A DNA stretch of 64,000 nt from a virus. The position numbers were made by a program, and so were the translations under genes. The stretch covers positions 2,116-66,115 of the IMG/VR virus record IMGVR_UViG_3300027996_000026, one strand, 5' to 3'. Below the pieces are notes generated by a model. It did no database searches. It worked only from the letters and a program-made list of their open reading frames with translations, and was not told the DNA's origin. Each line of letters begins with the position of its first letter. Position 1 is the first letter of the stretch. Below are positions 1 to 64,000 of this stretch, piece after piece.

Positions 1-579
1 ATCCATTGCTTCATTGTAAATTAATTCACTTATATTCATTATCTTACCTTCTGGATCTGTTGTATCTATATATCTCTTAGCTTCAGCTAATGCTTCATCT
101 TCTGATTCATATCATCATGACATCTCTCATAGTAATTCTATTCTGTATTCGTATATTTCTCATCTATAATATTTATCTAATGTTTTAATTTCATTGTCTA
201 AATATGTTAATGTTACTTTCTCTAAATTACATTTAGCACAAGTTAATTCTTCTTCTGCTTTCTTTTTTGATACATATATATATCCCCATTGTCAGCTATC
301 CCATCTACATCAGAATGGTGATGTTGATATTGTTACTCATGAATGTTCGTATAAATATACTGTATGATAATATACTTCTTCCATCGATAATCATTCTCAT
401 TCTAAATACATAGCGAATGCTTTCTCTATACTGGCTTGTCATTCTGGTAATTCATCATCACCACTATAGTTTCTATGTGATGTAACTAATGTTCATAAGT
501 TATCCCACTCTCTAGGATTTTCTGGATATTCATCCTGTGTTATCTCTATATTATATCACAAATAATTTGTATCTATCAT
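1..579 (-). CDS. Conserved hypothetical phage protein (runs off the window edge)
   Basis: With TGA=Gly: MIDTNYLGYNIEITQDEYPENPREWDNLGTLVTSHRNY...VYLYEHSGVTISTSPFGCRWDSGQWGYIYV. Resembles a recalled phage family of unknown function. Confidence 0.75.
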
Positions 580-923
580 ATTGTTTCTTTATTGTTAGTC
601 ATTAAAATAGTATTTAATTTTCTAATATAATAATCAACTCTGTCTTTTGTTTTAATCCTTTGATGATATAAATTAGATACTAAGCATGGACTCTTTCATA
701 GTCTTTCTCATACTCAATCTCTTGTATGTATATCAGTAGCTCTTTCAACTAAATTAGATAATTCATTTAATTTAATCTTAGTTGCTAACTCTTGCTTACT
801 TCTTAATCTTTTCTTTTTATCTTTACTTATTGATAATGGTTTAACATATATAGTATATAACATTAATGTTACTAATAAGTTAATCATTAATATTATTATA
901 AGTATTGTGATTATTATTTCCAT
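573..923 (-). CDS. Hypothetical membrane-anchored protein
   Basis: Track ORF 714..923 reads through TGA to a TAG at 573-575. Hydrophobic N-terminus. Confidence 0.65.
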
Positions 924-950
924 AATATATTTTTTAATTGTAAAATAAAA

Positions 951-981
951 ATACTATCAACTCATAATGAATTGATAGTAT
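951..981 (-). terminator. Probable intrinsic terminator
   Basis: Stem atactatcaa/ttgatagtat followed by a T-rich run on the minus strand. Confidence 0.5.
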
Positions 982-991
982 ATTGATAATG

Positions 992-2506
992 TTATATATT
1001 CATTACCTTAATTGTTTTATCCTTTGTAACTTCAGTAGCTATTAATTGTAAGTCTCAGATTTCTTTTAGAATTTCTGTTCTTAAATTTATTCCAACTGAT
1101 TCCCACTTATCGAATAATATAAAATCTAGATCTAAATATTTTATAAATAATTTAGCTATAAGTAATTCAATATATAATTCATTACCTGTACTAGTAGCTC
1201 AATATTTATTTCATTCTTTATCATAGATAGTGAATGTCTCTTTCATATTACCATTCTTTAATCTTTCAAATAATCTAATATCTAATCAAGTTTCTTTTAC
1301 TTTCTCTTCTATTGTTTTATTGAAATCTGTTTTTATCTTTTGATACTTCTTAATTGATTTAGTTATATTAACTGAATCAAGATCTTTAAGTTGTTTATCT
1401 TTTATATCTAGTTCTTCTTGTAAAGTAGATTTTCTATTCTCTTGCATATCATAATCTCTTAGAGCTGTTGTATATATATTATACTCTTCAGTATTACCTG
1501 GAGTATATTTTATTCATACAGCTTTAGATTTTTCTTGTAGACTGCTACTTATTTCCATAGCTAGTATTGATTCATATGCTGGTTCTTCAACTTGTGCTAT
1601 ATGATTATTTCTATCAGATTGTAATTTAATTAAATGCTCTTTTGCTTTTGGTATTTGATCTGTTACTTCTTTATATTCTGCTCTTAATTGTTTAAGCATA
1701 TCATCTGTATTTTCAATTTTGATTAGTGTTCAGCACTCTCAACAATTATAATCTTTAGCATCTTTTAACTGAGTTGCTTCTCTATGTATACTTCATTGTT
1801 TAAGTTCTAAGTCAAGTATACTTTCTTCTAGTTTCTTAATCTCAGAATAATTATATAACTCAGCATTCTTTGTTTGAGTTTCATAATCTTCTTTAGTTAT
1901 TTGATTCCTTCATCTAATTGCTATATTATCAGATGCAAATTTATTTTCCATTGCTGTATATGCATTTAATATTTCAGATGAATTATCTGGTATAGCTTTA
2001 ATCTCTATAGGTTTCTCTATATTTAATTCCTCTATTGCTTCTTCTAATCTTATAGCATCATCTGAGATCTGATCCTTCTTTGCATCAAATTCTTTTTCTT
2101 CAGCTTTGAGTCTCTTCAGATTATTATTAGCATCATCTAATATAGATGAATCTATATCTAATATTTTAGTTATTAAAGATCTTTGATCTCAAGTACTCTT
2201 AGTTAATTTAAAGAAATTACCTGGTACTATATATCTAATTATCTCTGCTTGATTAGTAGTTAATGTTCATCATCCTACTATTCTTTTATTACTCATCTCT
2301 ACATCAAATGCTTCTGTCTTTAATGTTGCTCTACCATCTGGTAGAGTAGTTCAGTATCATGGATAATATCATGAATAGCAAGCCATTATACAATTTAATA
2401 TTGTAGTCTTACCTATCTTACTCATTCATACTATTCTAGTTTGTTTATCAAACTTAACTTCTTTTTTAACTCAATGTACTCAATCTACTTTTATTGATTT
2501 AATCAT
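992..2506 (-). CDS. Rad50/SbcC/SMC-like ATPase with long coiled coil (504 aa)
   Basis: N-terminal Walker A IVG(TGA)MSKIGKTT, central coiled coil, C-terminal signature-like ATSTGNE and Walker B-like FILFDKWES. Confidence 0.8.
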
Positions 2507-2513
2507 TTGTATT

Positions 2514-2741
2514 TTAATATAATATAATAAATATAATTCATAGTATCCAAAATGGACCGAATAATAAATATCATATTATTCTTTTCTTTAAACTATATGG
2601 CTTAAAATATGGTTTATATATTTTCCTTATGTTTAATGTATTTCTAAAAAATATTGTTTTATCTTGTCATACTAATGTCCATACAGATATTAGTAATATG
2701 ATTATTCAAATAATACAATATATTGCTAATGCTAATAACAT
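2514..2741 (-). CDS. Small membrane protein
   Basis: ATG..TAA ORF under table 25 with a hydrophobic N-terminus. Confidence 0.45.
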
Positions 2742-2762
2742 ATTTTAATTGTTAATTATAAA

Positions 2763-4613
2763 TTAATATCATTTCTTTTTATTTAATCTTCTCTCTTTAG
2801 ATAAGCTTGATTCTCATAATATTATTCTTCCATTATTATAGATTCATGATATTACTCATACCCAACTCTTACCTCTATTTTTAGTTATTATATATCTTAT
2901 AGGTCTTCATTCTCATTCAGATCAAGTTCATCATGTATCGCTTCTATCTCTATCTATATGTATAACCTTGTTAGCTACTTGTGCTATTGCTGCACCATCT
3001 TTAAATGAATCATTATCTGGCTCGTCATCCTTACCTAATTTTCTATAGTGACTAACTAGCAAGCATGATACTTTGTATTTTCTGATTAGATCATTTAACT
3101 GATGCATAAACTCTTCTATAGCTAGATCATGTCTCTGGTTCTTTTCGAACTTTACATAATGTAAATGATCTATTACTACAAGTTTAACTCATCTATTAAT
3201 TACTACATCCTTGAATAAATTCTCTAGTTCTTTTATTCATACCATTTGTTTATGTGCTAAATCTATTATCCCTTTATTAAAGTTATTTAGATTTTTTACT
3301 GCTGTCTGAATATCTAATTGTATACCTGGATAATCTTCTTCAGTAAATAAATTTGCTTCAAATATTGAATGTGATGGCATAGGCTCATCTAACTTATTCA
3401 TAGTTAATCTCTTTTTCCTAATCGCTACTACTTGATAATATATATCATTGATTCTACTTTCTTCTAATCTATCCTCTAATGAATATCTTGCTACTGCAAA
3501 TCATTGTCTAGCTACATTATTAGCTATCTGATTTACTATAGTTGTTTTACCTACTCATGTTATTCATCATATTACTATTAATTGTCCTGGTAATAAATAT
3601 CATAGATTTGTATCAAACTTCTCAAATCAATAACTCATTACTGTAGATTTAGTTCTTAATCTTAATTCATCATATCATCTTGCTAATCATTCATCATATC
3701 AAATTAATGAGAATGTTTTTTCTTTAGTTTGAACTGATAGATCTAATATAGATCATAATAATTCTGCTCATGAAATTTTTCATAATTCATTTACATCTTC
3801 AGCTATACTTTCTTCTAACTCATATATATCTGAATCTATCTCTGCTTTAAATCATTCCTTACATTTTATTCCAGCTGGATCATTATCAAATAATATATAA
3901 ATCTTAGTAAACTTATTTAGTAATGCTACTAACTCTTCTGTAGGTTTAGCTACTGCAGATTTAAATCATATTACTTGTTGAGTATATTGTCTTAATGTAA
4001 GATAGTCTGTTAATCATTCTACTAATATTATATAATCTCTCTTGAGATCTTTATCGAAATGATAAAACATTCCATCATTACCATTAGTATAAAATCATTT
4101 TCATACTAGACTTCTATATTGATATCAAGTCTTTACTCATTTTATATCATGCATTATTGCTGATATACAATAAGTTTCTTGATCTGGTGCATCCTTTCAG
4201 AATGTCTTTGCCTTCGTTAATGATATTATATTATTAGGAAGTAGCTTCAATTGGATTCATCTTAAGTACAAATATGAAGCTAATCTATCTTCATCGTTGA
4301 TCTTGTAGACTTTTTCTATAGGTTTCCATTCATCTTTCTCTATATGTAGATTAAAGTTTTGTTTAGTAAACCATTCTATTGCTTCTGGTATTGTAGCACC
4401 TGTAGCTCATATATAGAAATTTAACGGATTCCCATGAGGTCTCCAGTCTTTTGCTCAATTGAAATTAGTTACTATATTATCCTTAACGCAATAACTATAA
4501 CTATCACTAAATTTTCAATCATCCCATATCCATTTCCTAGTATTAGTTTCTATTCACATAGCATCTAATACTTCTTTTATATCTACTTGTTTTATTTTTT
4601 CTAAAGAATCCAT
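2763..4613 (-). CDS. Fused primase (TOPRIM)-DnaB/SF4 helicase (616 aa)
   Basis: TOPRIM motifs IILVEGLTDYL and ILFDNDPAG. Helicase motifs GITGVGKTT, LEDRLEE, LVVIDHLH, LLVSHYRK, IITKNRG. Confidence 0.9.
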
Positions 4614-19597: not shown

Positions 19598-19811
19598 CTC
19601 ATTTATTTAAAGTATTAAATTGCTTGTCTACTATATTGTTAAGAATTTTTCTAACTTGTGCTGCCCGATTTTCTCATTCTAATATTTCTAATACTCAGTC
19701 ACTTACTTCTATTCAAAATCATATGATTGCTCATTTTGGTATTATATCTTTATTTCATGTTTGTACAGCCACTCATCCATCTTCCATATCGTAACATATT
19801 ACTTTATTCAT
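19590..19811 (-). CDS. Hypothetical protein
   Basis: Open ORF of 73 aa that fills the gap with overlapping start and stop codons. Confidence 0.45.
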
Positions 19812-20215
19812 TATGGTAAATATTTATTAATAAAATTATTTAATACTGATGTCTTTCAAGTTATGTACCGAGTTATCCAACATCATAGACATACTCATAT
19901 AAAATATCTAGCTCTTTTTAATGGTTTAACTTTATATACTTTCATTGAATGTAAGAATAAAAATTGTGATTTCCAATATCAATATATTTTATATCTGACT
20001 AACCGATCATGATAACAACAAGGTGTTAGTGTAGCTGGCTCTATTCTTTGTCAAAAAATACAAAATGGTATAGAACATCAATCAAACTCAAATCATTCTT
20101 CTATCTCATCATAGATTCATGTTTCTGTATCTTTATGATAAAATCTAAAAAGTTCTACAACTCTCCATTGTTCTCATGATGTTTCAATTATTGAATGATC
20201 TGTAAATGTACTCAT
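19811..20215 (-). CDS. DUF1353-like protein
   Basis: GFEFDGCSIP..PCCYHDRL, matching the recalled GF.TD.ASIP..A..HD pattern. Confidence 0.7.
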
Positions 20216-20216: not shown

Positions 20217-20690
20217 TTAAGTTTTCTTAAGCCATCATTCGATAGTCTCTAAAATAAAATCTCATATCTTTTTAATAATTAAACTCACTACATCATATTC
20301 AGAAACTACTTTTTTAGTTCTTATAGCATAAACATTTTGTGTAATACTATATGTCTCTGCCATTATAAAAATAGCTAATACTGATTTAATATAAAATGAT
20401 CAATCTATTTCTATTCATTTAAACATTAATGCTAATGATAGTATTAATATTAATGTACTAATTTTCTTAACAGCTCATTGCCATGCAGCATGACTAGTTA
20501 CTTTAGATCAATCAATTCTTAATTGTTTTCATATTCATACTATGAAATCTATAATCATCAACATTCAAAGGATACATATTTGTGTATCCTTGATATTTAA
20601 ATATTCAAATATTAAAATTGCTGTAGCATAACCACATAATTTTACTACTCATATTGATGATGTCGTAGCAACTGTTGTCGTAATCGGCAT
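20217..20690 (-). CDS. Holin (phage_holin_4_1-like)
   Basis: Transmembrane segments, IIDFIVGIGK..G..KKI, IMAETYSITQN. Confidence 0.75.
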
Positions 20691-20770: not shown

Positions 20771-21601
20771 TTAACTTCATGTATTTGTACTTGGAAAAGA
20801 TCTTCATGTTCACCATATAATTCTTAATGCTCAAGCTGCACCATTTCAATGAGTAGTATTGCTATCGTTACCAGCTCATCATCCTCAGTATGAACCTCCA
20901 TTAGAATATGCTGCATTACCATCTGCTCAATTACTTCATCAAGAACCTCATCCTCAACCATATCAATCTCAAGTAGATGCTGTACCACCAGATCCACTAG
21001 TTCATTCTCATAGTATTCAGACTCATCATCCTCATCATCAACAATCTGATATTCATCATCCACTTCAACCTCAAGCTGCTCATCATGTTCAGTTTCATCA
21101 AGTTGAACCTCTATTACTTCAAGCTCATCAATTTCAAGAATATCATCAAGCTCATCCTCAACCAGTACCATAATCTGAGTTCTTAGTACCATTACCACCA
21201 TTTCATCATCAATCTCAAGTATGACTTCATCATACTCACGCTATACTATCTGTAGATCAACCAGTACCTCAATATCAACATACTGTTGCTGTACTAATAA
21301 GGTAAGAATTTCAACCACTTCAAGCTGTTCAGTTATTAATTCTTGCTCATCCTCATCATACTACAATAGTATAATTACTTCAAGGTGTTACTGATATATT
21401 ATTTTTATATCAAAGTCATCCTCATCAACCACTAGCTGAACCAGTGCTTGTATAAGTACCTCCTCAACCTCAACCTACAGCAACTACACAAATACTAGTT
21501 ACTCAAACTGGACAAGTCCATATCGCATTTGATGTATATATTTGTTCTCAATAAGGTATATCTGTTTGTAGATTCTGACTATGAAATAATTGCCTATTCA
21601 T
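20771..21601 (-). CDS. Glycine-rich tail-associated protein (276 aa)
   Basis: WTCPVGVTSICVVAVGGGGGG..GALRIIWGTGRSFPSTNT. Dozens of TGA codons interleaved with GGT/GGA. Confidence 0.85.
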
Positions 21602-33004: not shown

Positions 33005-34894
33005 TTAAATTCATAGAGCATTCAATGCTGCTAAAGGATCTTCTACTTTATCCTCTATCTCTGCAGGTATATCTTCTGCTAATAATTCCGTATTATCTAT
33101 TCATTCATTCCCTTTGAAATCACTTTCCTCTTCAGTAAATCAAAACTTCTTAGGTCATTCGTTTCATACCTTAGCTCATTTATTTAACATTTTGAAATTC
33201 TTTAATTTATCTAAATCAAAGTCATCATCTAATAATGCATTCATTATCTCATCTACATTAACATCTTGCTTCATTTGAATCAACGACATAAATATTTCTT
33301 TAATAATTCATCTCTTCTTTTCTTTCTCTATATTTCTTAGAGAATTAAATTTAAATGATATAGCTTCATCTCTTATAATCTTCTCTACTTCTAATTCATT
33401 TACATATAATTTTTTATCTTTAAATGTAATATTTAATCATAACTCTTTTAACTCAGCTTCAGTAAAATGTTTTAAGTATGTTAGTATCCATGCCTTAGCT
33501 ACTCATCACATCATTATTTGTACTGAATCAATTACTGGTGTCAGTTTAGATTTATATTGATCATGTATAAGATTTATAGAATCTGATACTCTTTCTACTT
33601 TTGATTGACCTCATAGTAAATATCCATTTACTCATGCTCTCTTCTCAGTAATTTGTTCTACGAATTGTATTGTATTTATTGGACTAAAGTCATTTAATCA
33701 TAAATCTAATCTCTTTATATCTGAATCTCAAGTTAATTTAATTGCTTTAAATTTTTCAAATCTTAATTTACCATCTCTTGATAGAGCTGCTACATTTCAT
33801 TTAACTGTAAACATTCAAGATAATTGCATCTTCATATTATCTAGAAATCAATTCCAGATAGATGTCTGCATATTCTGTAAATGCGATAGATTATCTATTT
33901 GTCAATTAGATGTTCATGCTCCAGGTATTTCATTAAAACTTATTCATCTTATAGATGATACATCTCAATCTAATATAGGTTCACCATGATACAATAAATT
34001 TCAATCTATGTATACAGTTAATTTTCATTTACAAATATATTCAACTACTTCGTATGATCTCTTATCTTGTACTAAATAAAAGTTGTTTTTATCTATTGTA
34101 GATAGTTCATCTCTAACCGATCATATCATAGTACTTAGTGGTACTCAATTGTTATATGATTTTGTTATTATATTAGAAAAGTTATTAATTCTTTTTATAG
34201 GATTGTAATCATATAAACTATATCTAGTTTTAGTTTTATTTGTTATAGCTAATACTTTATTTATAAATCAATGTATATTAACTTTCTTAGTTTTTCAGTC
34301 ATCAAATAATACTCAATACTTATCTTTGATAAAATCTCATGTATTAAATACTCTTTTTATTTGATATCAAGATTTATTTATTCATTGTACATCATCATAA
34401 AATACATTAAATATAGATATGAAATCTATACTTGGTTTTTTAGTTACTACTGTTTGTTTATATTTTCATTTAAGAAAAGTATATTCTTCTTTCTTTTTAA
34501 ACAATGAAGTCTCAGTAAATCATTCTCATGTTATTAAGCATTCCTTTAATGATCATTTAAGTGCTTGCTTACCTTGTGATTTATAATCAAATACATCTCA
34601 GCATAGATTTTTAAATATAGATTCTTGTACTCAGAATACAAAATTAAAATCAAATAGATTTGCAAATTCTGTATCTACTATAGATGCTGCTAATGGATAA
34701 CTAATATTTGTTTGCCATGATTCTATATCAGCTAATCTATCTAATGTGTATCATAGATACTGTTTATAGTTATTTATATACTTAGGAAATTTTTCTTGCT
34801 CAAATCTGTTTATAACATCTCTGATCAAAACATCTTGTTCCTCTAAAGCTTTAGTTTCTTTTTTAGTAAATGATTGTGTTTCAATTTTTGCCAT
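33005..34894 (-). CDS. Portal protein, P22-like (629 aa)
   Basis: Between terminase and scaffold. WQTNISYPLAASIVDT near the N-terminus, EKRAGVNGYLLGG, helical composition. Confidence 0.8.
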
Positions 34895-37358: not shown

Positions 37359-40300
37359 TTAATTGCTAGTTATATCTCCTGGTAATCCTTTGATCGTAGT
37401 CTTTCTTATTTTAATAGGACTTGTCTTTGATCTAGATGGTTTTGGTAAACTAATCTTCTTTTGTTTTGATTTTACAAATCATTTCTTTGGAGTTCATTTC
37501 TTTATATAAACTTTTGATTTAGTTGGCTGTGTAGCTGCCTTAAATGATTCTTGTATGAAATAAGAATTTATTTCTTTTATTATAGGGAAGTTTAAATAAT
37601 TTAATTGTAAACTTTTTTGTGGTAATGATCCATATGCTATCCTATCAAAATTTTCTGGTATAGTTTTTCATTTAAGAAATTGTGACATCTGAGGAAATTG
37701 TTTTCAGAATCATGGTCTAGGTCATCAAGCGAATGATGATGATTGTCAATTCTTAAAATAGTTTGGAAAATATTTTGATTTACCACTACCACTTCAGAAG
37801 TTAGATACTTGATAGTTTGCTATAGAATCTGCATCAAAGTCTTGTATATTAGTTGCTGTCTTATAGGTCCAACTAATTAATTGTCTTTGTGCTGGTAGTG
37901 TTAATAAATTAAACACATCATTATCTCTTAGCATATCCCATGATGAATCATTCATTCATGATAGTACAGATGCGATTTTAGCTGTCTGTTCTTTACCTGG
38001 TTGAGTAGAGTTTGTTATCTCTCTAATATGTACTAAAGCTGCTTCCTTAACTAATTCTACTGCTTCTGCTGTAGGTTCTAATCTTTTTCATAATGGACTA
38101 TAATATGTTAGTAATCATTTAAAAGATTTAGTATATTCTGAAGTTAAGTATTTTGCATTAGTATCTCACTCTTGTAAGTTTCTTGTTGAGATCGCTAATC
38201 AATTCATATAATCTTTTAATCAACTACTTGCTCATGCTTCTTGCATATGCTTATAAAGTTCTGGTTGATTTTTTTCTATATGTAATCCAAATACATTCTT
38301 AACATTTTCTAGGTTAGCATTTAGTAATCATTGTGAACTTAATTCCTTCAATACTTTATATTTAATTCCTGCTTGTTCATCTTGTTCAAAATAGAATGCA
38401 TCTTTATATTCTATTCATTTTTCTTCTTTAATTTCTTTTTGTATTTCTTTAAATCTATTTGTTGCTATGTATGAAGTTAAATGTGCTACACTTAATTCTG
38501 GTATATCTTTTTGTTTAGTTTCATAGAATAATTTTTGTAATGCTATTGTCCTACTTGAAGGTCTATTAACAAAGTCTTCTTTAGTATATCAGATGTCAGC
38601 TAATGCTTTTGTGATGATGTCATCCATCTTATTACTATATAAATCTTTACCTGCTGTTAATATTTTTCTTCCTTTATCATCTAGCTGTTGTCATACTCAT
38701 TGGTATACAACTATATTGTTCCAAGCTTTCTCTGTATATACTTGATCTAATTCTCAATCATTTACTAATATAGTATCAAGATTATATCATCAAGCTCATA
38801 TTCATTTGTCATATAAATTTTTAACTTCTTCTGTAGATAACAATTGATTTACTCATGTAGTTATAGCTGCGTTCCCTAAGTATTGTGGTTTCATAAATGA
38901 AATAAATATATCTCATATACTTGCTCAATATCATAGAGTACTTACTCTTCAACTTCTATTTGCTTTTTGTAATTCACTTTGTGATTCCCTTAAGTTAGAT
39001 GGTATTCAATATCAGAACATTGATAAACTATCTTGTCCTTTCATTTGATCATACATACTTCAGATTAATAATCAATGTGCATTTCTCATATATGATCATA
39101 CTGAGTTTTGAGTAGCCATATAGAATGCTTCTAGATATCCTTCTCATAATGTTTCATGTCTATTAACTGCTGAAGGGATTGTCTTGAAAAAATTAAATGG
39201 ATTGTTTTTTATTACTCTAGTCATATGCTTGAACATCTCTATAGTTGTTACTTGCATCCTAAGAGCCATAGATTCATTTTCTCTTCATTGTAAGTTACCT
39301 AACTCTCTATCAAATAATATTTCTAGAGCTGCTAAATTATTTACTGCTGACTCTATAAACATTCATTTATTAGTTTTATCATCTTCATCGCTGTAATCAT
39401 ATTTACTTATCTTAGCTCATAATCATGCTGCCATTCAAATATTTAATAGCATTGCTGTATTATAATCTATAAACTCTTTCATTAATACATTTCATCAATG
39501 TTTATCTCATTTCATAAATAATCTAATTGCTTCTCATCAAGCTAATTGTCTTTCTATTCAAGTAGTAAATTTATGAAACGCCCATCAATTTAAAAATTTA
39601 TATAATTGAAAAAATACTTTAGTTGTAAATCAAACTCACATTCATGTCTGACTTCATATCCTTGTAAGAAATGTTTCTTTGAATATTGGCATATTAGATA
39701 TTACTCAACCTCACATATCATTATGTTCTCTATAGAATAATATTTTGAATTTATCTTTTTCTCTAGATGTTGTAAGTACTTTATCTAATTGATCCTTAGT
39801 CTTTACTCAATATATTTCCATAAGTCTAATCGCTGATGCTTGTCTTCTAACAGCATCTTGTAACATATCTGTAGCTAGTAATGGTTCTGTTATAGTTGTA
39901 TCTATAATATTCATTAACCTTCTTTGTAACAATGGATCTTTAGTTCATAACTCTTTAGTCATTTTCTTAACAATTCATTTGATACCTTCAGATGCAAATT
40001 TTTGTAACTTACCTATCTTAGTATCTATATTTTGTTCTCATAATCTTTGTCAATGTGATCAAGCGTCTTCTCATAATAATTTATATTCTTCTACTACCTT
40101 AGATGCTTCTGCTATTTGAGATGGTGTTGCCTTTCTTAAAAATCATAACATCTCTATTGTATTTCATAGTACTTGAGTCAATCAAGCTATATGTCATACT
40201 CATCATAAGAATAATGATGTTGTCTGATATGCTCAATGATAATATGCTGCTTGCGTTTCTCTGATTAAACTTAATAATAAGCTATCATCTTTCTTAACAA

Positions 40301-43300
40301 AGAGTACATCATACATATCATTTGATTGTTTGATATTAAATTTAGTTCAATTTGCTTCAGCTCATTCCTTCATATATTTATTAAACTCTCATCTTGGACC
40401 AACGAATGCATCATCCATTGTTCATGTCTTTGTAATTATTCATAGTCTTCTTAATTCAAATTCGAAGTCTCAAGTAAATAATCAAATTAGATCTTGAAGA
40501 AATCATCAAGAAACATTTATTCAATAGTTTAATTTATATCATCAGCTATCTTTATAATATTGATCCATTTGATTTAATCAATTCATCAATGGTGGTAGAA
40601 TGTCTTCAGCTATTTTTTTTCAATACTTATTTATTATCTCAGATTCATTTGCTTCAAATTTCTTAACAGAAAATTTTCATAAATCTTCTAAATATCATTC
40701 TGCATTAAATACATGCCCTTTATCTGTCTCTGCTGTATGTTTTTTAATTCTTGCTAGTATTTCATCATAAGCTCTTACTTCAGTTCATTTAAGAGATCCT
40801 AATGCTTTTATTTCTTTTTTTAATCATTGTTCTATAGTGATCATTAATTCTTTGACTGCCATAGTAGCACTTCAATTTAAATCTCTTGCTGTTAATACCT
40901 TTCACATTATTTCTGGTCTCCATGAACTAAGTACTGATTCAAATTTTAATTTAATTCAATCTCTTAATAATGAATCTACACTTGATGCTGATTTAAAATC
41001 ATCCATTAATTTAATAAAATCTCTTTCTCATATCTTATGAGTAAGATTTAGATTAGAAATATAATCATCTGGAACATAAGATGATTGTAAGTCAGTTCAA
41101 AATTCTTCTAGTATTGTAGCATCAGCTATTTCTTTATCACTATTCTTTGTTAATCAGTTTATATATTCATCTAGTTTAACTATCTCTTGCTCTAGATCAT
41201 TTATCTTATCTGAAGTATTTTGTATATCTGATATAAATCAATCAGCTCAATCAGCTATACTATCTATAGATTCTCTTATCTCTCAGTAATCTGTAACTCA
41301 AGCATCTTCTATATCATCTATAGATTCTGTCATATTAGATAATTCTTTATTTTTTAATTTATATTCATCATACATTTCTAATGCATCTGAACTTAATTCT
41401 CAAATATCATTTTCTAATTTATTTTTTGTAGATCTTAATTGATCTATCTTTTTATTGATAGGAATATTTTTACTTAAAATAACTATTGGTTCTAGTCATC
41501 TATTATATTTATAAATAGAATGTGCTGAACTTAATAATCTTTTCTCATCAGAAAAATTTAATAAATCTAATTTATCTCAATCAGTTAATAAATTAAAAAT
41601 ATTTGAATTTCATTTAGATAAAGAATATAACGCTACTAAATCTCTATAAGATTTTTCTACTGCTAATTCTCATTTAGAATTTATAATATCTTTTCAATCT
41701 ACTTTAAATTCAGAAATAATTTTATGATGATTTATTCTTCATGTAACTTCGTTTGTATGTTTTAAATATAATTCATCTAGTTGTAATACTATATTTGTTA
41801 CATCTCTATCTTTTAAATTTAATTTAGCTTGATCTTCTAACTCTATTAATCTTTGAAAATCAGATTGTATAATATCTCTAGTATCTTGAGTTATAAAATT
41901 TGTTTTCTTTTCTATAACTGTATCAACTAATTTATTTAATATAATTCATCTTTGAGTTTTTGGATCAAACTCATTTTTCATTTTCTCTAATATAAATTCT
42001 GGTTCAGTTGCATTACTTAATTTATTTATTATCTGTGCATATTTATTTCAGAAGTCTGTAAACATTGATCTTCTATATCATAATATACCTGCAAGTATTC
42101 ATTTCTCTCACATAGGTGAGTTCTTTTTAATAGCTAGTCATCTTACCTTCGCAAGATTTAAACTCTTGTCTCACGCCTTATGTGATGCTCACATAGGTGA
42201 TAGAATATTATTAAATAAATATTTAATAGTTTCTGGATTTTTTAATCATAATGATTTCATCATATCTTTAATCCATACTTCCTTTGGAAATGGATTACCT
42301 GTTTTATCTTTAGCATAGTCCATAATTAATTGAACTATAGATCAAGTTTCAGATCAATATGTATTTGATTTTTTAAATACATCTCAGTATCCAGGATTAA
42401 GATTTCATTCTAATCTTTTAATATTATCAAAAATTTCTTGAACTGTTTCATATTTATCTTTCTCAAATATTTTTCATTTCTTTATTATAATCTCTTTTCA
42501 TTTAACTTTAATCTTTAGTATATTACTAGCGTGTGGATGATCTGTAATTATTGCTTGTTGATATTGTAATAATATATTAGCTCATCTTATAACTGACATT
42601 CATGTAGATATACTTAATTTAGCTTCAAGATTCTTAAACCTATTCTCAGATAAACTAAATGTTTTATCTGAACGATCTGCTTTAGTTTGAGTTATTATTG
42701 CAATAGTATTATTATAATCTGATTTAACTGTTCAATATAAATCTCAAGCCATATCTAATCACATTGCTGTTCTTGCTATTAACTCAGACTTATCTGATAT
42801 AATAGGAAACATAACAAAGTGATCACCATCATTATCTCATTGTATCTTCATGTATGTAGTCTCTGGATGAAGTATAACATCATCTGATTTAACTTCCTTA
42901 CCTAATCATACATCCTCTGCTAAAATAACCTTATACACTCAAAGGTTCTCTTTGTTTGGTATAGGGTTTCTTAATCAAGTAATATATATTTCTTTATTTT
43001 CTAACTGATCTTTTAAAAATATTAATTTATTATTTTTTTCTGTTAATATTTTTTCATTTGTAATACCTTCTGATATTTCTTTTTGTAGACTGTCTATGTT
43101 TGTTTTTAGATCTCTTACTGCATTCTTATATAAATGAGATTCCTTAGATACTATGATTTCATTTCTCTCTAGTCTAGTTTTTCATTTAGACCATCTAGAT
43201 ATAGTTTTCGTGTTCATCGCTGCCTTAGATCTCTTTGGTAGGTCTATTAATGAATATAGTATTGTATGTGATGCTCACTTCTCAGTACTTCATGATATTA

Positions 43301-46300
43301 ATTCTTTATATCAATCTAAGAAACTTTTAAGTCTAGCATTAATCATTGAATCAGTTGTTCATCAAACATTATGAAGTTTTTGTAAATTATTTAAAAATAA
43401 ATTCATATCTCAGAATGATGCAAGTTCTTGATCATATCATCCTAATCATCATAATGTTTCTTCGAATAATTTTTCTACCTCTTTAACCATTACTCACTTA
43501 TATGCTGTCAATACATCATAGTCCATTAAATTCACTATCTGTTCTGATAGTGTTTGATCTTCTTTAATTGTTTGTGCATCAGATGCTGCGTCTTTAAATC
43601 ATCATGTATTAGTTCATTCTATTTCTCATACAACTTTAAATGTTCTTCAGTTTACTCTAACTGTTTCTACTTTTGATTTACTTAGTCATCATTTTAATTT
43701 TAAACTACTTTCACCAATTAATACTACATTGTCTTGAGTTTTATAAGACATTGCATTCTTATCATAGACTTGTATATCAGCTCTATTAAATAATGTCTTA
43801 GCTAAAAATCTATTATTATCTTTTGCATATCAAGTATAATGAAATTTCTTAGCTCTATCACTTTCAGTAAACATTCACTTATCTATTAGATCATGCATCT
43901 TAGCTAATGCATCAGACATATATGATGTACCATCAAATAAATCTGTAGCATATACTGTATCAACATATGATTCTAATTCTTCTAAAGTTTTTCATTCAAA
44001 TCTTTCTTTAGTTAATGTAGGATCTAAATTGATTAACATATCTACATATGTATCTGTATCTATAAATAATTCAGTTTGTTTATCTAAATCTCTTTTTGGA
44101 TTAATCCTATCTAGTTCTTCAGATATATTAGCAAGAATTGTTCTTCAAGTTACAAGATTATTCTTTGTTCATGTAGTATGTATCTCTTCTCATAGTACTA
44201 ATGTTTTAGTATCTATCTCTACATCTCAAAATTCTTTCTTAGTAGATGCTAATGCTGATTCTCTTTTAACTATATCTGATATAGATACAAATCATTCTTC
44301 AGTTTTAAATCATCATGATTCAATATATTTTTCTGTAAATTCTACTTCAGCTTCTTTAAATGTTTTACCTTCAGCTTTATATACTTGTAGAGAAGTTTCC
44401 TTGTCACCGTAAGTTCACATTATATATTCTCATTCTTGTAATCATAATTGTTCTCTAATACTATCTTTGTTTTTAGATTCAATTAATCAATTAGCTATAT
44501 CTGTTACTACTTTTAATGTTTCTATTCAAGTATTATAATCGTCTCTAGACTTCTTTGATTTTAATAATTTAGTTTTTAATATATTATTAATTGTAATATT
44601 TTCTCATACACTTAAATATTTTAGATCATCTACTTTATTAATAGATATAGATCTAAATCATTCTAATCAATTTTCTTTTAATTCTGTTTCAAATAAACTA
44701 TTCTGTTTTATTTGTCATTCCTTTCTAGTAAGTTTGTATATTGGATATCAATTTTTATATCTAACTAATTCTCTAGCTATTGTTATTCAATCAGTACTAG
44801 CATTATGTAGAGTTTTAAATTTAACATATAAATCAGAATACATTTTATCATTAGCAAGTAGCTGTCTACTCTCTGCTACTGATTTAACTTTACCTGTAGC
44901 TCAATCAACTAATTCATATCTTAATCATAATACTCATGATTTAGTTTCAACTCATTTTATATATTCATCTAAGAATGATTTGAATGCTCTGAAATTTTTT
45001 CAAGCTTCAATTGATATATTTGATTTAACTCCTGGTGTTAAATTCTTTCATTTAATATCTATATCAAATTTAAATGAATCTATCTTAGCCTTAAAATCAT
45101 TACTAGAAAAATATAATTCTTGTAATGTTTTTGGATCAGTTCATTCCTTTACTGTAAAATCTTTTTTTATTGCTGCGAATAATTGTTCTCAAACTACTTC
45201 TTCGCTATTACCAGCTCAAGAGAATGCTGTATTGAATGCTTTAAAGATAGGGTTTTCTTTTTTAGATATATCCAGATCTCTTTTATTATCTACTAGATGT
45301 CTAATATTTTTTAATAATTGTTCTTTAGATATAAATCTAATAGCGTCTTTAGAAAATATTCATACCTTTGCTACTATTGGTTCTGGTATTCATGCATTAT
45401 ATTTAACTTCTATTTTTGTTTTACCTGCTACCTTACTTAATAGATCTTCTATTGCTCAATCAACTGTAGATAAATATTCTATAGATTCTTCTTTAGCTAT
45501 AGCTCTATATAATTCCTCTAATGTTAAATTCTGTTTATTATAAACTATCTTTAATGCTGTTGGCATTTTATGTGCATTCTTTATTACATTCACTTCTTGT
45601 TGTAATAATGAATCAGCTTTACTTAATTCTGTTTGTAATTTTTTTATTTCTGATTTATTTTTCTGTATATTCTTTTTTAATTTGTCCATAGTTTCTATAG
45701 TCAAATCAACTCATACTTTTTCTACATCAGATAAAGGATCTTGTGTTACTTGCGTTTTCCCAGACTTTAAAGATATTTCCATAGTTTCTATCTCTTTAGT
45801 TCTTTTGCTTATCGCATTAACTAATTTCTCTGTATCTTTAAGCGTTCTTATTCCAGTCTTCTTTGATTGAGGTAAACTATTTATAATTCAATCAAATTTA
45901 ATTAATTTAGCTTTGTATAAAGAATCGTATGTTCTTTTAAATATAAGCTTAGAATAATTTTCTATAAATTCTTTTTTCGAATAATTAAAAGTTTCATTAG
46001 CTATTTTTAATTTTCTTTCTAAATAATCTTTTTGATTTTTATTAAAATTTATTTCTTCAGCTAAGAATAATTTAGAATCTAATTCTTGTAATTGATTTTC
46101 AATTCTAGTAATAGCTTCAGTTCTTTGTTTTATTATTTCTTCATATTTAAGTTCTGCTTCTTTTTTATAATGATTTAAATCAAACTGATTAATCATTTCT
46201 TCTGATCATCTAGTAATAGTTTTTTCTCATGATAAAGAATCTATAAGAGTATTAAAATTGTCTATAGTCTTTATTATTTTATTTGAATCTATATCTTTAG

Positions 46301-49300
46301 CATTATTTAATCTATTTAAATCTAAATCTACTTTTTTAAATAATTCAAAATTCTTTACAACTCTCGTTGCAAATACTTCAAATATATATTTAGCTAATGG
46401 ATCTTGATCAGCTTCCTTAGTAAACTTAGTCATGATAAATTTCTCTATGTCTAATCATTTTTTATTTATCTCATCTCATTCAATTATTTTATTTTCTTTT
46501 AATAATTGTTTTATAAAAAGTTTCTTAGCATCATATGTGATTGTTTCAAACTTTCAAATATTATTAAGTGGTCTAGCTAGATCTATTCAGTCCTGGATAG
46601 TTACTTGTGAAAATATATCTTTTATTATTTTAGAACTCTTTGCATGATATTCTTTGAATGTACCAGATACATCAAATCATAAATCAGTCATTTCCTTTCA
46701 AACTCAAATATAGAATAAATTCTTTACTTCTCATTTATTTGGTCATTTAGTGACTAACATTTCACCATATGTTATTACTATCTTTGCTTGAGTATTTGCC
46801 ATATCATCAGCATATTGTTGTCTACCAAATCTTTTTCATTTAACTAATTTATTATCTTTACTTGTTCAAGCATCTACATATCAAATGTCTTTTCCGAAAA
46901 TTCATTCATGATATATTTTTTTACCTTCTGGAGTTGTCTCTGTATAATTTCATAATATCTTCTTAAGTTTATCTATTTCTTCATAAGTATATTGATTACT
47001 ACCAGATGAATATGGATGTGTTTCGCTACCTTCATTTAAACCTTTATTAAATAGTTTTAATAATTCTGGACTCTCACTACTTAATTTATTAAATAGATTT
47101 CATTTCTTTGCTGATACACTATATGTTCAAGCCTTATCTAATCATAAAGTTACTTTATTTTTATCTGTTACTTCTAATATTCAAGTATCATTTAATTTTT
47201 GTAAATCAACTCATCATTCAAATTCTAATAATTTATTTAAATTATCTACTGGTATTTGAATAACTTCATTTGTTATTGGATTCATTAATGTTAATACTGC
47301 AGAAATTTTATCAGCTAAGTTTGCTGTAGAATTTCTTAAAGTATATAGATCTGAAAATAATTTTATCATATCTAATTGTACTCAATCTAAATCTCATGAT
47401 GCTTTTTTTGCTTTTATAACATTAATAGCTCATGTAAATTTAGCTACCTCTGCAGCTTTAGTAGTAGGATTTAATTTAATTATAGCTTCTTGAAATGTTT
47501 TATTTCATTGTACTGCTGATATAATATCAGACATTTGTTTATCTAGAATTGCATTTCAAATTTTAGCATCAGTTAGATCTTCTGACTTAGATAATTTAAT
47601 TCATCTATCTACCTCATTTTCAAATCAAGATTTTAATGTAGTTAAATTATCTACCTTTAATATACCACCTCATGTAGTAATCATTTTATTTGCTTTATTT
47701 AAATCTCATGATTTAAGTTTCTCATATGCATCACTAAAATTCTTATATAATTTTTCTAATGCTGCTTTATCTTTTGCTTTTGATACATCAAATAATTCAC
47801 TTAATCTTTGATCAGTAATACTATATACAAAGTCTCTTTGAGTAGCCATTAATTTATATGCTTCTGATTGTGTAAGTTTAGGATTTTGTTCCATATAAAA
47901 CTTAACTGCATCTTTAGCTGAGACTTCTCATAACATATATGATAAAGAGTTTTGTACTAGTGAGTTTCAACTTATAGCTGAATCTATAGCTGAAGTTCAT
48001 ATAGATGGTGTAGATGATCATAATGTCTTATATGCGAATGGTTCTATAAACATATCAGAGAAAAAATCAGTCATAGCGTTTGCATCTGTGTCTGTTATTC
48101 TCATCTGTTTATTTATATTTGGATTAATTGTTCATCATTCTAATCAACCTCTTAATCAATATAATCAAACTCTAGATGTAGTTAATCATGTATCTACTGA
48201 ATAATTAAATAATTTATTTATTGAATTTAAGTTTTGTCAAGATCTTGCTTTCCTTAAATTAGTAGATATGTTTTTTAATGTTGTTGTTACTCATCATATT
48301 GCCTTTGCTGGAACATTAATCTTGTTTCATACATTAGCTATATTTAATACTTCAGTTATATCATCAGTATTATAAACTATATGTTTAAATAGTTTTATAG
48401 GTAATGCATCTGCTGCTGTAGTTAATTCATATTCATCATAGAATATTTTATCTGTATCATTTTGTTTTATAGTTGCACTAGCTATTGCAGATACTGCAGA
48501 ACCGAAAGGTAAATCTAATGATTGCATTCATAATTGTAATACATTTCATATTGCTAATATTGTTCATACAGCTCATCATTGATCTGCTCTTCTTTTTAAT
48601 TCTTCAGTATTATAGTACATAGCCATGACCGTATCTGTACCATCTCTTATTACTAATGCCTTTCTATTTTCTTCAGATAGATCTGATATAGCATCACGAT
48701 ATGCCTGGCTTATTATTTTATCTTTAGTGTAATCTAACTTATTATCTATTGTACTTATATCATCTAATTTAGTTATTTCAGTTTCGTATTTTTTTAATAC
48801 ATCTCTAAATAATGTTTCTCTTGCTTCCATCTGTGGTAATAACATACCTTTTATCTTTGCTCTTTTTTCTGGATCTTTTACTGCTGCTAAATTCTCATAG
48901 TAGTTTGTTTGATCTCTAGTTATCTTTTCTTTTATAGTTGATATCATATCACTAAAAACACTATCAGAAGCTAGCTTAGAGTTCCATTGTACTCATTGCA
49001 TTATCTCTTCCATCTTAGTGTCTACTATTTCTGTTCATATATATTGCTGAGTTCTTACTGCAGCATTATCTGATATATTATAATTGAATGTATCTAGAGG
49101 ACTTTTTCATTCTCTTGGTTGTACATATTCATCAGCTATTATTTTCTTTTGAACATTTCTATATTCTACTATAGATTTATTTAATGATTCAATGTCTTCA
49201 TTATAATCTTCATCAAGCTTTGCTTGCTCGTCTTGCAATAATTCTTGCTTCCTATTATAAATATAATTCTGATCATTTAATAATTTTTTATCTTTGATTT

Positions 49301-49934
49301 CTTGTTTTACAATTTTATCTAGTCTACTATTTAATTCTAGATTATATTTATCACTAAATACATTTACTTGTTTTTGTATATGATCTGGTAAAGGTGCTTT
49401 ATCTATTTCATTAAACTTCATTTGTACTTCTGACCTATCTCATTTTTTAAATTCAATATCATCAGTATCAAATAATCAAAATGGTTTAAATCATAATATA
49501 TCTAATTCATCTAATCATGTAGATGCTATAAAGTTTGCCTTACCTAGATTGTCTTGAAATCATTTAATAACATTACTATGTTTATTCTCATCATTATCTA
49601 ATGTAGCTCATACCTTTGGATCAAAGAAATCTCATATAGCTCAGAAATATCATCATGTATTCTCATTAGCTCTTGTAGCTACTTCTTTTTTATCGTCATC
49701 ATTTCATGTGAATAATGTTCATATATCTTTTGCTGTATCTACTACAGCACTAAATGGTGATATTTCATAATTCTTCTTTAATGATTGTCAAAATGATTTG
49801 ACTTGTCATATAAAAAATCAATCTTTTTCTTTTGGTATTTCTTTTACATTAGTATTTCATACTAGATTTTCTGTTCCATTAGGAATAGTAGGTTTAGTTC
49901 ATGGAACTAACTTTGTTGTGTCTTCTATTGACAT
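37359..49934 (-). CDS. Giant protein (~4,191 aa) with a single-chain two-barrel RNA polymerase core (candidate virion RNAP)
   Basis: Start, stop and seven minus-strand track fragments share one frame; ~30 sampled lines have no TAA/TAG. Motifs in order: FDGTSYMSDALAK, FLAKTLF, IGESSLK, GLRNP, VILHP, QGDNDGDH. Confidence 0.85.
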
Positions 49935-51328: not shown

Positions 51329-51604
51329 ATGAAAAATAAAGAATTGATAAAGTCAATTGCACATGATACATCTTTTTCTGAATCTACTATTAATATAGTA
51401 ATAAGAAGCTTAACTTCTAATATAACTAAGACTATAGCTTGATGAGATAAGGTTAGGTTAATTGATTTTTGAACATTTGATAGTGTACGTATTAAGTCAA
51501 GAAATTGAGTTAATCCATCTACTTGAGAAAAGATCGTAATACCAGAATTGAACAGAGTTAAGTTTAAACCATCTACTATTATTAAAAAATTATTAAATAA
51601 ATAA
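51329..51604 (+). CDS. hup: HU family DNA-binding protein
   Basis: MKNKELIKSIA..VRLIDFGTF..RNGVNPSTGEKIVIP..VKFKPS, with the conserved glycines encoded by TGA. Confidence 0.92.
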
Positions 51605-51605: not shown

Positions 51606-51926
51606 ATGGCAATAAAAAATGTAAGAACTGTAGCATATAAAACTCTTTCTGATAGATTAGCAAAACAACATTGATTAACTAAAGCATTAGCTAGAACATT
51701 ACTTGATTCATTTTTTCATGAAGTTGAATATGAATTACTGCAATGAAAAAATGTTGCTATTAAAAATATGTTTTCTTTGAAAACAAGAAAGATTAAATGA
51801 AAGGTTATGTTTAATACTAAGTTTAAAAAACATTTACCTATAGATGCTCATCGCTGATTTAGGTGTGTATTCTCTCCCAGTATAATGGAAAGAATGAAAG
51901 TATATGATAGACAAAAAAAAGACTAG
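51606..51926 (+). CDS. Divergent HU/IHF-like protein
   Basis: LAKQHGLTKALARTLLDSFFHEVEYELLQGKNVAIKNMFSL..RCVFSP. Confidence 0.7.
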
Positions 51927-52490: not shown

Positions 52491-52491
52491 A

Positions 52492-52897: not shown

Positions 52898-53884
52898 TTA
52901 ATTCTGTGTACTATTCTTTATGATCTCTCATAACTCTATACTTAATTCATCAAAAAAATTTTTATTTTTTCCGATATATTCATAAAGCTCCTCTTTATTC
53001 TTAGCAACTTGCTCTCATTTAATTTGATATCTACCTGTGATCATTCAATACTTAATACCATATTTAATGAAATCCTCAACCTTATCTATACCTACTCAAT
53101 ACATTATATTAAACTCAGCCCTCTTAAATGGTGCTGAAACTTTATTCTTTATAACATGGATGTTCGTAGGTGTACCAATATTCTCTGTCTTTGTATCTCA
53201 TTTTAATTGCCCCTTCTCTGTACTAGTTCTACCAACTCTAATTCTCTGACTCGCAGCAAATTTAGTTCATAATCATCCAGTCGTAACTTCATTACTCCCA
53301 AACATCGCTACAGTCTGCCTAATCTGATTTATCAAGATCAATGTACAATTATTCTTATTCAAGACTCATGTCCACATCCTTAACGCCTGATTCATCAGCT
53401 TCGCTTGAGTCATCACACTAGGATCGCCACTAGAGCCTTCTAACTCTTTTTTAGGTATCATCATAGCCACGCTGTCTAAAACAATCAATCTGACGCATCA
53501 TGATTCTGCTAACATCTTAACAATGTCTACTGCCTGCTCTCAATACTCTGGTTGCTGGAATACTAACTTCTCTAAATCTATACCTATATCCTCAGCATAT
53601 CCAGGATCAAATGCATGCTCCATATCTACAAATGCTGCTACATCTCATTTCTTCTGGACCTCATGTATCGCATGCAACGCTATAGTAGTTTTACCAGAAC
53701 TCTCCATACCAAATAACTCCACTATCCTTCCATCTGCATATCATCCCCCCAATGCTTCATCTATCGCAAAACATCACGAACTCGTAACAGGTATATCCCT
53801 CTTACTAGCATCTAAATAATTCGTAGTACCTGCACCAAACTTTGTATTAATCGCTGCTATCGCTGCTTCCAATGTCTTGCTCAT
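52898..53884 (-). CDS. recA: RecA recombinase (328 aa)
   Basis: [57 protein letters not shown]. Confidence 0.95.
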
Positions 53885-56127: not shown

Positions 56128-56190
56128 TTGTTTGTACAGGCAGACTAGTACACCTAACAGGATATCAAGTATCAGTTAGATGCAGTAAGT

Positions 56191-61312: not shown

Positions 61313-61422
61313 ATGTATTATATAAATTAATAAATAAAATAATGTAGATAAAAATAAAAAAAACCTACATAAAAATATTTTATGTAGATTTATTTAGACA
61401 GAATAAATTTAAGTACAAGATA

Positions 61423-61914
61423 TTAATAATCATTTATATTATATAATGTACATATTGTATCGTAGTACTCAGTACACTCTTCTTTAAATGTATGTCATCA
61501 CCATGATCATTGCCATTCTATAGACTCATATTTAGTTTCTATATGTAGATCTATATGTGGTCATCATCATGCTAGATTTAAATCTATAATCTTCTGGTCC
61601 TTATATTCTGTATGCACATACTCATCTCTTCAATAGTCTGTGAAGTACTCGTATATAATATCTTGTAGACTGTCTGAATTTTCTTCAGCATATATTTCAT
61701 TTGTCCATTCTCATTTGTCATACATATCTTCTGGATCATCATCATATGATTCTACATAATCTTTATATTGTTTATATTGTTTATCTATTTCTTCTTCAGT
61801 ATCTGTAGAACAATACTTAATTATAAAATCTACTCTAGTTAATTTCTCGTAGTCTGATAACTCTTCTATAAAGTTATCATACATTCTCTCTAATTCTTTT
61901 ACTGTATTATCCAT
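61423..61914 (-). CDS. Hypothetical phage protein (163 aa)
   Basis: Track ORF extended through TGA: LAGGGPHIDL..QGSWGG. Confidence 0.65.
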
Positions 61915-61918
61915 TACT

Positions 61919-62236
61919 TTATTTCTTACGAACTAAATTATAATCTTTTTGTATTCAATTTATATCTTGACTAAATCATAACATCTTATCTGCTAATATT
62001 AATATTACCCATGAAAGAAATGATTCAGTATTTTTAAATGTATCTGTTGCTGATGCACATAATAGTTTCCATTTGTATCAATCTTCAGATGGAGCATATG
62101 AATTACGATCATTGTATTCTATTGTAATCCGATCTGATATTCATTCTTTTCCTTTCTCTATATTGTATCTAATAAGTCACTGCTTTAATGTTAATCAAAA
62201 ATATTTTTCTAATATGTTTGTTAATTCTTTATTCAT
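61919..62236 (-). CDS. Hypothetical protein
   Basis: Open ORF of 105 aa. Confidence 0.5.
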
Positions 62237-62422
62237 AATAATTTATTTACTAATATAAAATTCCTTCTATTATAAATCAAAATGTTTCTTTCTTGATTGT
62301 ACTTCCATTATTAGAAGTTTTAATCTTGCTTCTATTTTCAATAGATCATTCTTCTCTACATGATTACCATGTAATAGTTGATCAAATATTTCTAAGTCTG
62401 TCATTGTTATTTTTATTAATAA

Positions 62423-62770
62423 TTAATTTTCTATTTCTCATAAACATTTTTCACAAATGTAATCTGGTTCATCTCAGATTTTCTTTATGATCTTATCATA
62501 TAGATCATCTTCTGCATCCTCACATACTTGATGATAATGTCAGTCATGTTCTTTCTCTTCATTATAACAATTGCTACACATTCAGATTCAGCATACTTCA
62601 CATTTAAAATGTTGTGATACATATTTTCTTCATTCACAATATGGACAATCTCATTCTGTATCTATAACAATTTCTATGTCACAATTCGATTGCATTGTAT
62701 AATATGGGATTCAATCTAATATACATTGTATCTCATCTTTATCTAATTCTATTCTTATATCTCTACTCAT
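62423..62770 (-). CDS. Cys-rich Zn-finger protein
   Basis: CPYC, CEVC, CSNC, ICEKC. Confidence 0.65.
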
Positions 62771-63593
62771 AGTTTTAATTAGTTAGTAAGTTCTATATCT
62801 ATTGTATCATAATCTATTACTTCTAGTTCTTCAGAACTTCAGTCTAATGTTACTCATGTCTCTTCATCCCATAGTGCTATCACTAATAGTTTCTTTAGTT
62901 CCTTTTCTGATAGTGTACTATCAGCTGTAACTCTTATGTCTATTATATATTTACTCATAATATTTATTTAATATAAAATATTTTCTAACTCTTCTTTCTT
63001 ATCCTTGTAGACTGGATGCTTTTCTAAGAAATCTTCTACTCATAAATCTATTCTAGTATCTAGATAATTATAATAAATCCTTTCTATTATTAAATCAAAT
63101 GCATCTCATTCTATTCATAGATTATTTAATGCTTGTATTATCATATCTTCATAGATATCATTAAATGAATCTATTCATTCTCATGGATAGTTTACATCTA
63201 ATTCATCTACAGTATCTTTTAAGAACTGCCAATCTAATTCTTTAATCATAATTCTTTGTTAAGATTTAAAGTTTGATTAACTATTCAGTTAATCATATCT
63301 AGTTCTTCATCAGAATATTTATACATATCTGATACATATATTCAATCTCAATCTATTTCTAATTCTATGTTCATAAAATCTCTAAATGTTTTTAGATAAA
63401 ACTTCTTTGTTAGTATAGTGAAGTCATCAATATCCATACAGAAATCTGACATCTCATCAAAATTATCTAATGATATATCAACTATATCTCATATGTTATA
63501 TTGATTAAATCATAACTCAATTAGTTTTTTATCAAATCCTGTATTAATTATAATATCTGCTTTTTGATTTCAAATTTCCATTTGTTTATTTTC

Positions 63594-64000
63594 TTATCAA
63601 GTAAAACATAACTCATAGATAAAGTCTACTTTATCTTCTATGAATTGTTTTAGAGTTAATAACTCTGCTCAGTTTATGTTATCACTTCATGATATTTCTT
63701 CTATGAAATTATACATATCTGTCATATCTACACATCATCATCAGTCTAGATCATGTTCATGTTCTTCATCTCAATAATGCTGTATCATTATATCTCCTTC
63801 AGATGAATAGAATATTCATACATAATAATCATCATCTAATTTTATTGATAGATTATCTACTTGTATTATTGGATTGTATTCTCAGTACTGTAATGCGAAC
63901 CATGATAATATCTTTAGATATGTATTCATATAATAAGTTTTATTATCATCTATGTTCGCTTGTACTATTGCTTGCTTCTCTGCTAGATCTGGATCTTCGT
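63594..64000 (-). CDS. Hypothetical acidic protein (5' end outside the window)
   Basis: Open frame from the window edge to a TAA. Confidence 0.5.

Follow-up and report, generated by a model that had tools for sequence, protein, structure and literature searches.

A seawater tailed phage in which TGA encodes glycine and CGG probably tryptophan

The present analysis concerns the genetic code of a virus recorded in IMG/VR as IMGVR_UViG_3300027996_000026. The stretch analysed, called the window here, is 64,000 nucleotides long and corresponds to bases 2116-66115 of a virus record that consists of a single contig of 66,648 bp. It is most of the genome of a tailed phage, as is evident from its large terminase (TerL), portal, major capsid, holin and lysozyme genes, from the virus record itself and from relatives that carry terminal repeats. 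The account that explains the data best, and that is very likely correct, places this seawater phage in a clade using genetic code 25, with TGA as glycine, TAA and TAG as the sole stops, the code shared with the host, and CGG probably read as tryptophan with CGA kept as arginine. According to this account, the whole clade of about 60-67-kb phages would be written in the code of the Gracilibacteria and Absconditabacteria, a Candidate Phyla Radiation (CPR) branch. Low guanine-plus-cytosine (GC) content would have made TGA the main glycine codon (76%) everywhere except in the most expressed gene, that of the capsid. The phage would, very probably, also follow a second change of its host, in which CGG passed to tryptophan and CGA remained arginine.

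The status of TGA as a sense codon can be read from the open reading frames (ORFs). Table 11 leaves 20% of the window covered by ORFs of at least 100 amino acids, and the coverage rises to about 90% when TGA is taken as sense, against 28% in a control in which TAG was opened instead. A greedy gene set with TAA and TAG as stops contains 76 ORFs and makes 93.8% of the 66,648 bp coding; 66 of these genes end in TAA and 10 in TAG. In frame, TGA is found 1104 times (5.32% of codons), GGN 362 times (1.75%) and TGG 148 times (0.71%). When TGA is translated as glycine, the proteins contain 7.1% glycine and 0.7% tryptophan, which are ordinary values. Under table 4, where TGA is tryptophan and which the public gene calls assume, tryptophan would reach 6% of residues and glycine only 1.75%. 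The stored translations do go along with table 4, as that of the phage RecA has W at all 13 TGA positions and those of the relatives behave likewise; the conservation of these positions, however, speaks against it.

The recA gene (52898..53884, - strand) holds 13 TGA codons, 10 of which align to glycines of the E. coli RecA. In the alignment with 118 homologues, a glycine majority marks 11 of these 13 columns, and in five of them glycine is present in at least 115 of the 118 sequences. Taken together, these columns have glycine in 967 of 1534 cells and tryptophan in 5. Similarly, three of the five TGA codons of an HU-like DNA-binding protein (51329..51604, + strand) align to glycines in the HU of Thermotoga, the two most conserved ones (GF-G-SF and G-VNP) among them. 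Codons were further compared between the window genome and four complete IMG/VR relatives (G479, G482, G480 and G481), with TGA masked in the alignment. Out of 6741 aligned TGA codons in the five genomes, 1623 face TGA and 1052 face GGN, both 5.8-fold over the background, while TGG is the partner in 14 and no residue other than glycine is enriched more than 1.2-fold. The table 4 reading is already refuted by these counts. TGG stays tryptophan, as 85 of the 175 aligned TGG codons of the window face W. A BLOSUM62 score summed over the divergent relatives had favoured serine over glycine; this measure was dropped, since most aligned positions are unconserved, and enrichment and conserved columns were preferred for naming the residue.

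It was also observed that TGA and GGN together remain steady at 6.2-7.3% of codons in the relatives, with the share of TGA in this sum dropping from 0.88 to 0.32 as GC climbs from 23.5% to 36.7%. A constant sum with a GC-dependent TGA share is the behaviour of synonymous codons under mutational pressure. One relative, G480, carries a transfer RNA (tRNA) with the anticodon UCA (G480:C1:32599-32673, complement), adjoining a tRNA-Cys and a tRNA-Met. It has the pairs G1:C72, C2:G71 and G3:C70 and the discriminator U73, the same elements by which Shulgina and Eddy called tRNA(UCA) a glycine acceptor (PMC8629427). Single genes of the window agree. In the SbcC/Rad50-like ATPase (992..2506, - strand), TGA at 2426-2428 is the first glycine of the Walker A motif (GxxxxGKT), and in TerL (34894..37041, - strand; 45 TGA) the P-loop has TGA at 36298-36300. 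In the frame of a GH24 lysozyme, TGA follows W in the W-x-H motif. The poly-glycine runs of a glycine-rich protein (20771..21601, - strand) mix both kinds of codon, with 65 TGA and 33 GGN.

On the strength of the sequence comparisons, the reading of TGA as glycine in this phage can be regarded as settled. A first-pass annotation, made from the sequence of the window alone, had already proposed it genome-wide, and the gain in coverage, the 11 RecA columns and the 5.8-fold pairing with GGN bear it out. The motifs that it quoted (SMC-type Walker A, TerL P-loop, HU, RecA and GH24) are all present, as are the mixed poly-glycine runs and the TAA and TAG gene ends that it described. Two of the checks it had named, the coding density under different tables and a search for TGA on tryptophan columns, were run, and the reading stands after both. 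Its statement that tryptophan is encoded by TGG is true as far as it goes but probably incomplete, as CGG also behaves as tryptophan; this second change, an apparent reassignment, appears to have been overlooked. It also had TGA-using genes on both strands. TGA is indeed used on both, but only two real + strand genes, the HU-like ones, were seen, and nearly everything else lies on the - strand.

Antisense shadow ORFs were removed before TGA was counted gene by gene, leaving 69 genes. TGA is found in 66 of them; the primase-helicase, SbcC and RecA are included, as are the genes for head, tail and lysis and the two HU genes of the + strand. The three TGA-free genes have 0, 3 and 1 glycines, and there is no TGA-free early gene block in the genome. 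ARAGORN detected no tRNA or transfer-messenger RNA (tmRNA) in the window or in the whole 66,648-bp genome, and Rfam gave nothing at the gathering threshold in the genome. With TGA in 66 of 69 genes and no tRNA, the recoding thus fits a matching of the host's code and not the recoding of late genes, as the first-pass annotation, which likewise found no tRNA, had argued. Recoded phages of standard-code hosts exist, and the window phage resembles them in that its genes, too, contain stop codons in frame that are translated as sense. One could accordingly picture a standard-code host in which in-frame TGA regulates late genes and the phage supplies its own decoding machinery, and the tRNA(UCA) of G480 would suit such a picture. 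In the window phage, however, the recoding is genome-wide and to glycine, it reaches the replication and recombination genes, and no suppressor tRNA or release-factor gene accompanies it. Neither of these was seen in the 2.6 kb outside the window, nor were spacers of a table-11 host. This explanation is, therefore, considered very improbable.

TGA accounts for 76% of the glycine codons genome-wide. The gene for the probable major capsid protein (30747..32084, - strand) departs from this, as TGA makes up 30% of its glycine codons (p = 3e-8). The same was observed in G479, G482, G480 and G481, where the TGA share is 0-23% in the capsid genes against 37-81% genome-wide, with p at most 4e-6 in each. 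The window RecA is also depleted in TGA (39% of glycine codons). For the capsid gene, we infer that selection disfavours UGA in this gene, the most highly expressed one. Such avoidance suggests that the decoding of UGA is limiting or error-prone even in code-25 cells.

Another codon box of the phage also departs from the usual. CGN codons are nearly absent from the genome (CGA 3, CGG 6, CGT 11 and CGC 2, against 545 AGA). In the comparison across the clade, CGA pairs with arginine in 96 of 311 cases and never with tryptophan. Among the 49 partners of CGG, on the other hand, 12 are tryptophan, which is thereby enriched 46-fold, and 2 are arginine. The signal of CGG is supplied by the low-GC relatives G479 and G482, where its partners are W in 12 cases, Y in 8, F in 1 and R in none (n = 30; 21 of 30 aromatic). 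In TerL, for instance, codon 558 of G482 is CGG and the four other genomes all have TGG. In the GC-richer G480 and in the phage contig of a genome called G167, which is described below, CGG stands at arginine-like or polar positions.

In the window itself, the CGG codons that could be compared lie in the gene of a DUF1353 protein (19811..20215, - strand), at 20003-20005 and 19868-19870. A full HMMER search with this protein gave 25 homologues. The two CGG columns hold Y, W or F in 80% and 74% of these and R or K in 8% and 17%. As 15 of the 128 columns of the protein have an aromatic majority, both CGG codons would fall on such columns by chance with a probability of about 0.013. Aromatic residues do not exceed 8% in the columns of the six AGA codons of this gene. 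The two nearest homologues, from low-GC TGA-recoded contigs, have TGG at both CGG columns (4 of 4). For CGA, the codon at 35230-35232 in TerL (codon 604) is AGA in both of the closest relatives, whose TerL proteins are 68% and 62% identical to that of the window, and it is found in a conserved stretch. It is, therefore, highly probable that CGG is read as tryptophan in the window phage; that CGA stays arginine is also likely, though it is held with less confidence. Together, these readings would give the phage a code that is probably TGA = glycine, CGG = tryptophan and CGA = arginine.

The simplest alternative is plain table 25, in which TGA is glycine and both CGG and CGA are ordinary arginine codons. 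CGN would then be merely rare at 27% GC (22 of 626 arginine-box codons), the use of CGG at arginine-like or polar positions in G480 and in the G167 contig would be expected, and two CGG codons of the window, no more, could be tested. Yet both of these face TGG in the two nearest homologues, inside conserved motifs, and both fall within the few aromatic-majority columns that the AGA codons of the gene avoid. In addition, CGG is never paired with arginine in the low-GC G479 and G482. For these reasons, plain table 25 is a distinctly unlikely account of the phage.

The other alternative comes from the codes predicted for bacteria. In the work of Shulgina and Eddy (2021), Codetta predicted that CGA and CGG are both tryptophan in the Absconditabacteria, and CGG was predicted as tryptophan in some Gracilibacteria; a split between CGA and CGG was deemed hard to achieve with tRNA(UCG), and the phages covered were the AGG = Met phages only (PMC8629427). 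The host of the window phage could thus belong to the Absconditabacteria (SR1) and use the three-codon code of TGA as glycine with both CGA and CGG as tryptophan. CGG does behave as tryptophan, as both testable codons face TGG, and the RecA of the G167 genome is nearest to metagenome-assembled genomes (MAGs) of Absconditabacterales or Absconditabacteria. However, at the sole testable CGA, which has a conserved context, the two closest relatives both have AGA; CGA of the low-GC members is never paired with an aromatic residue, and the relative binned with G167 uses both CGA and CGG as arginine. Moreover, CGG as tryptophan is reported for some Gracilibacteria as well (PMC8629427). The three-codon code is, thus, judged unlikely, while the best reading remains that the code of the phage, with CGG as tryptophan and CGA as arginine, matches the remark on some Gracilibacteria and differs from the prediction for the Absconditabacteria.

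The likeness to these Codetta codes extends to the combination of UGA as glycine with CGG as tryptophan, to the low GC and very rare CGN codons, and to the tRNA(UCA) with its acceptor elements, seen here in the relative G480. The differences are that the predictions were made for bacteria and the window belongs to a phage, and that CGA appears to be arginine in it where CGG is tryptophan. Across the clade, it is reasonably probable that two successive reassignments of CPR hosts are being tracked. All members would read TGA as glycine, the low-GC members would read CGG as tryptophan with CGA as arginine, and the GC-richer ones (G480 and the G167 contig) would read CGG as arginine. If this is true, a sense-codon reassignment is polymorphic within one phage lineage, with a split of CGA and CGG that was not predicted for the Absconditabacteria. 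Within the literature that could be searched, no paper was found that reports CGG as tryptophan in a phage.

Phages of code 25 as such have been described. Liu et al. (2023) reported phages and prophages linked by spacers to Absconditabacteria and Gracilibacteria, with dense in-frame TGA and readable only under code 25; among phages larger than 20 kb, 44 of 50 predicted for Absconditabacteria but only 4 of 38 of Gracilibacteria were clearly recoded (PMC10746230). The window phage therefore joins a kind that is already known. It is likewise dense in TGA codons read in frame, has hardly any genes under table 11 and regains its coding density under table 25, and in both cases the phage is interpreted as sharing the code of its host. 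Unlike those phages, whose hosts are linked through CRISPR spacers, the window phage has no such link; it comes from seawater and from a clade of about 60-67 kb with an ORF of more than 4000 amino acids. Furthermore, CGG also looks reassigned in it, which the sections of that paper compared here do not mention.

Table 25 is not known outside the Gracilibacteria and Absconditabacteria (PMC8629427, PMC10746230). As the phage encodes no tRNA and has about 1,100 TGA codons in frame, its proteins can be made only in a cell that already provides a tRNA-Gly for UGA and in which UGA does not cause termination. The host is, thus, inferred to be a bacterium of the Gracilibacteria/Absconditabacteria type, which is also what the first-pass annotation had named. 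In a TerL search of 401 genomes of the class that holds a Peribacteria MAG, one strong match was obtained, in G167, with 38% identity and 10 in-frame TGA. It lies on a contig of 15.3 kb that is wholly phage and syntenic with the window over the giant ORF, TerL, portal, capsid and a 958-amino-acid protein. The own RecA of G167 contains 7 in-frame TGA, and its best named matches are MAGs of Absconditabacterales or Absconditabacteria at 67-68% identity, against 59% for Gracilibacteria-named sequences. GC and TGA share are 0.37 and 0.32 in the G167 phage contig and 0.40 and 0.33 in a chromosomal locus of G167, and the contig is consistent with being a phage of the G167 bacterium. In short chromosomal samples from code-25 bacteria of the order of G167, TGA makes up a fraction of 0.19 to 0.81 of the glycine codons, with a tendency towards higher values at lower GC; the 76% of the phage is, therefore, normal for a code-25 genome of 27% GC. 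An earlier search of genome contigs with TerL and a Gracilibacteria RecA, in which the back-translated patterns carried glycine as GGN, was set aside, as the 80 loci retained were nearly all from standard-code bacteria and none was Gracilibacteria-named.

Some observations weigh against the proposed code and host. The reading of CGG in the window comes from two codons in one gene and that of CGA from one codon. The genes that hold the remaining four CGG and two CGA codons have no usable homologues, and the small CGG-bearing genes had none in the four complete relatives or in JGI metagenome contigs. The window phage also has no direct host link. The RecA phylogeny proposed in the first-pass annotation was computed with 120 sequences and gave no host signal: the phage RecA and its nearest relative share a branch 2.4 long that lies outside the eight Gracilibacteria-named sequences. 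Although 8 of the 13 named top matches of the phage RecA are Gracilibacteria or Altimarinota, they are 46-48% identical to it, like all the others. No spacer-type match was found between the DNA of window positions 20001-40000 and 141 genomes of the order of G167, with two candidates scored per genome. The matches obtained are AT-rich, 24-176 nucleotides long and 68-100% identical, and the lone perfect 24-mer is about what chance gives; with two candidates per genome, this search is no evidence against spacers. Finally, the all-phage contig may have been binned with G167 by composition alone. Thus, the proposed host fits the code, the relative binned with G167 and the tRNA(UCA) of G480, while the RecA tree and the spacer-type search provide no link to it.

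The correct reading of the code has consequences for the public data. In the public translations of TerL from about 25 relatives, W is mostly found at the TGA positions of the window (507 W against 176 G), and the public gene calls of the phage and its relatives were evidently made under table 4. As a result, about 5% of the residues, or one in twenty, are wrong in the public proteins. These errors weaken homology searches, structure predictions and family assignments for the phage and some 25 relatives. Once the coding is corrected, the host can also be sought among the small number of lineages in which UGA is glycine. If CGG is indeed tryptophan and CGA arginine, these rare codons would mark which sub-lineage of Gracilibacteria or Absconditabacteria the phage infects, and the clade would offer a natural series for phages that follow their host through a sense-codon change.

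The genome has a GC content of 26.7%, and its + strand shows a strong skew, with T over A and C over G, because nearly all genes are on the - strand. No terminal repeat was found in the 66,648-bp contig. Two relatives with direct terminal repeats measure 64.0 and 64.9 kb, so the genome of 66.6 kb is probably near complete. Nine studies contain the phage in their seawater and marine metagenomes; two of the nine may represent its own assembly sample and are hence not independent. It has the hallmarks of the Caudoviricetes, as TerL belongs to phrog_2 (E 7e-18) and a portal and a major capsid protein are also present. The matches to the SU10 portal and major head protein are weak, and both genes are kept in synteny in the relatives. 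Megablast against GenBank phages gave no match.

Apart from the genes already located, a Toprim primase-DnaB helicase fusion for replication (2763..4613, - strand) contains 36 TGA. The holin (Phage_holin_4_1; 20217..20690, - strand) has 10 TGA and is followed, beyond the glycine-rich protein, by tail-fibre-like and DUF3597-bearing proteins (21603-27173). The portal protein (33005..34909, - strand) has 38 TGA. Next to the HU-like gene, which has 5 TGA, lie a second HU/IHF-like gene (51606..51926, + strand; 4 TGA) and a WDGH-domain protein (51945-52556). The largest ORF (37359..49934, - strand) encodes 4191 amino acids with 251 TGA and is open only with TGA as sense. In all relatives, including G479, G480 and G482, it lies directly upstream of the terminase gene and is 4057-4663 amino acids long; its identity between relatives is only 24-33%, and it has no Pfam hit.

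In the GH24 lysozyme frame (PF00959; 60441..60935, - strand), the codon for G in the G-H motif is TGA. In PDB searches, the lysozyme gave no match with X at the TGA positions and only a weak one (E 0.05) with glycine. The frame opens at 60935 without an ATG, GTG or TTG start near its 5' end, and the first such codon comes only far into the domain. The membrane-protein gene upstream closes with a run of A, and the lysozyme frame overlaps its end (60441-61312). The lack of a start could be due to a -1 frameshift or to an assembly error in the homopolymer.

The stretch at 53900-56400 is the only long one without a convincing gene, and the GC skew turns positive at 54001-56000. Its + strand ORFs consist of Cys, Val and Phe runs and are probably not genes; the region may serve for control or as an origin. 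Elsewhere, long TGA-free ORFs at 32060-32944 (+ strand) and 51301-51663 (- strand) run antisense to a 270-amino-acid head-module gene and to HU, respectively. These are shadow ORFs that would mislead a table-11 gene caller.

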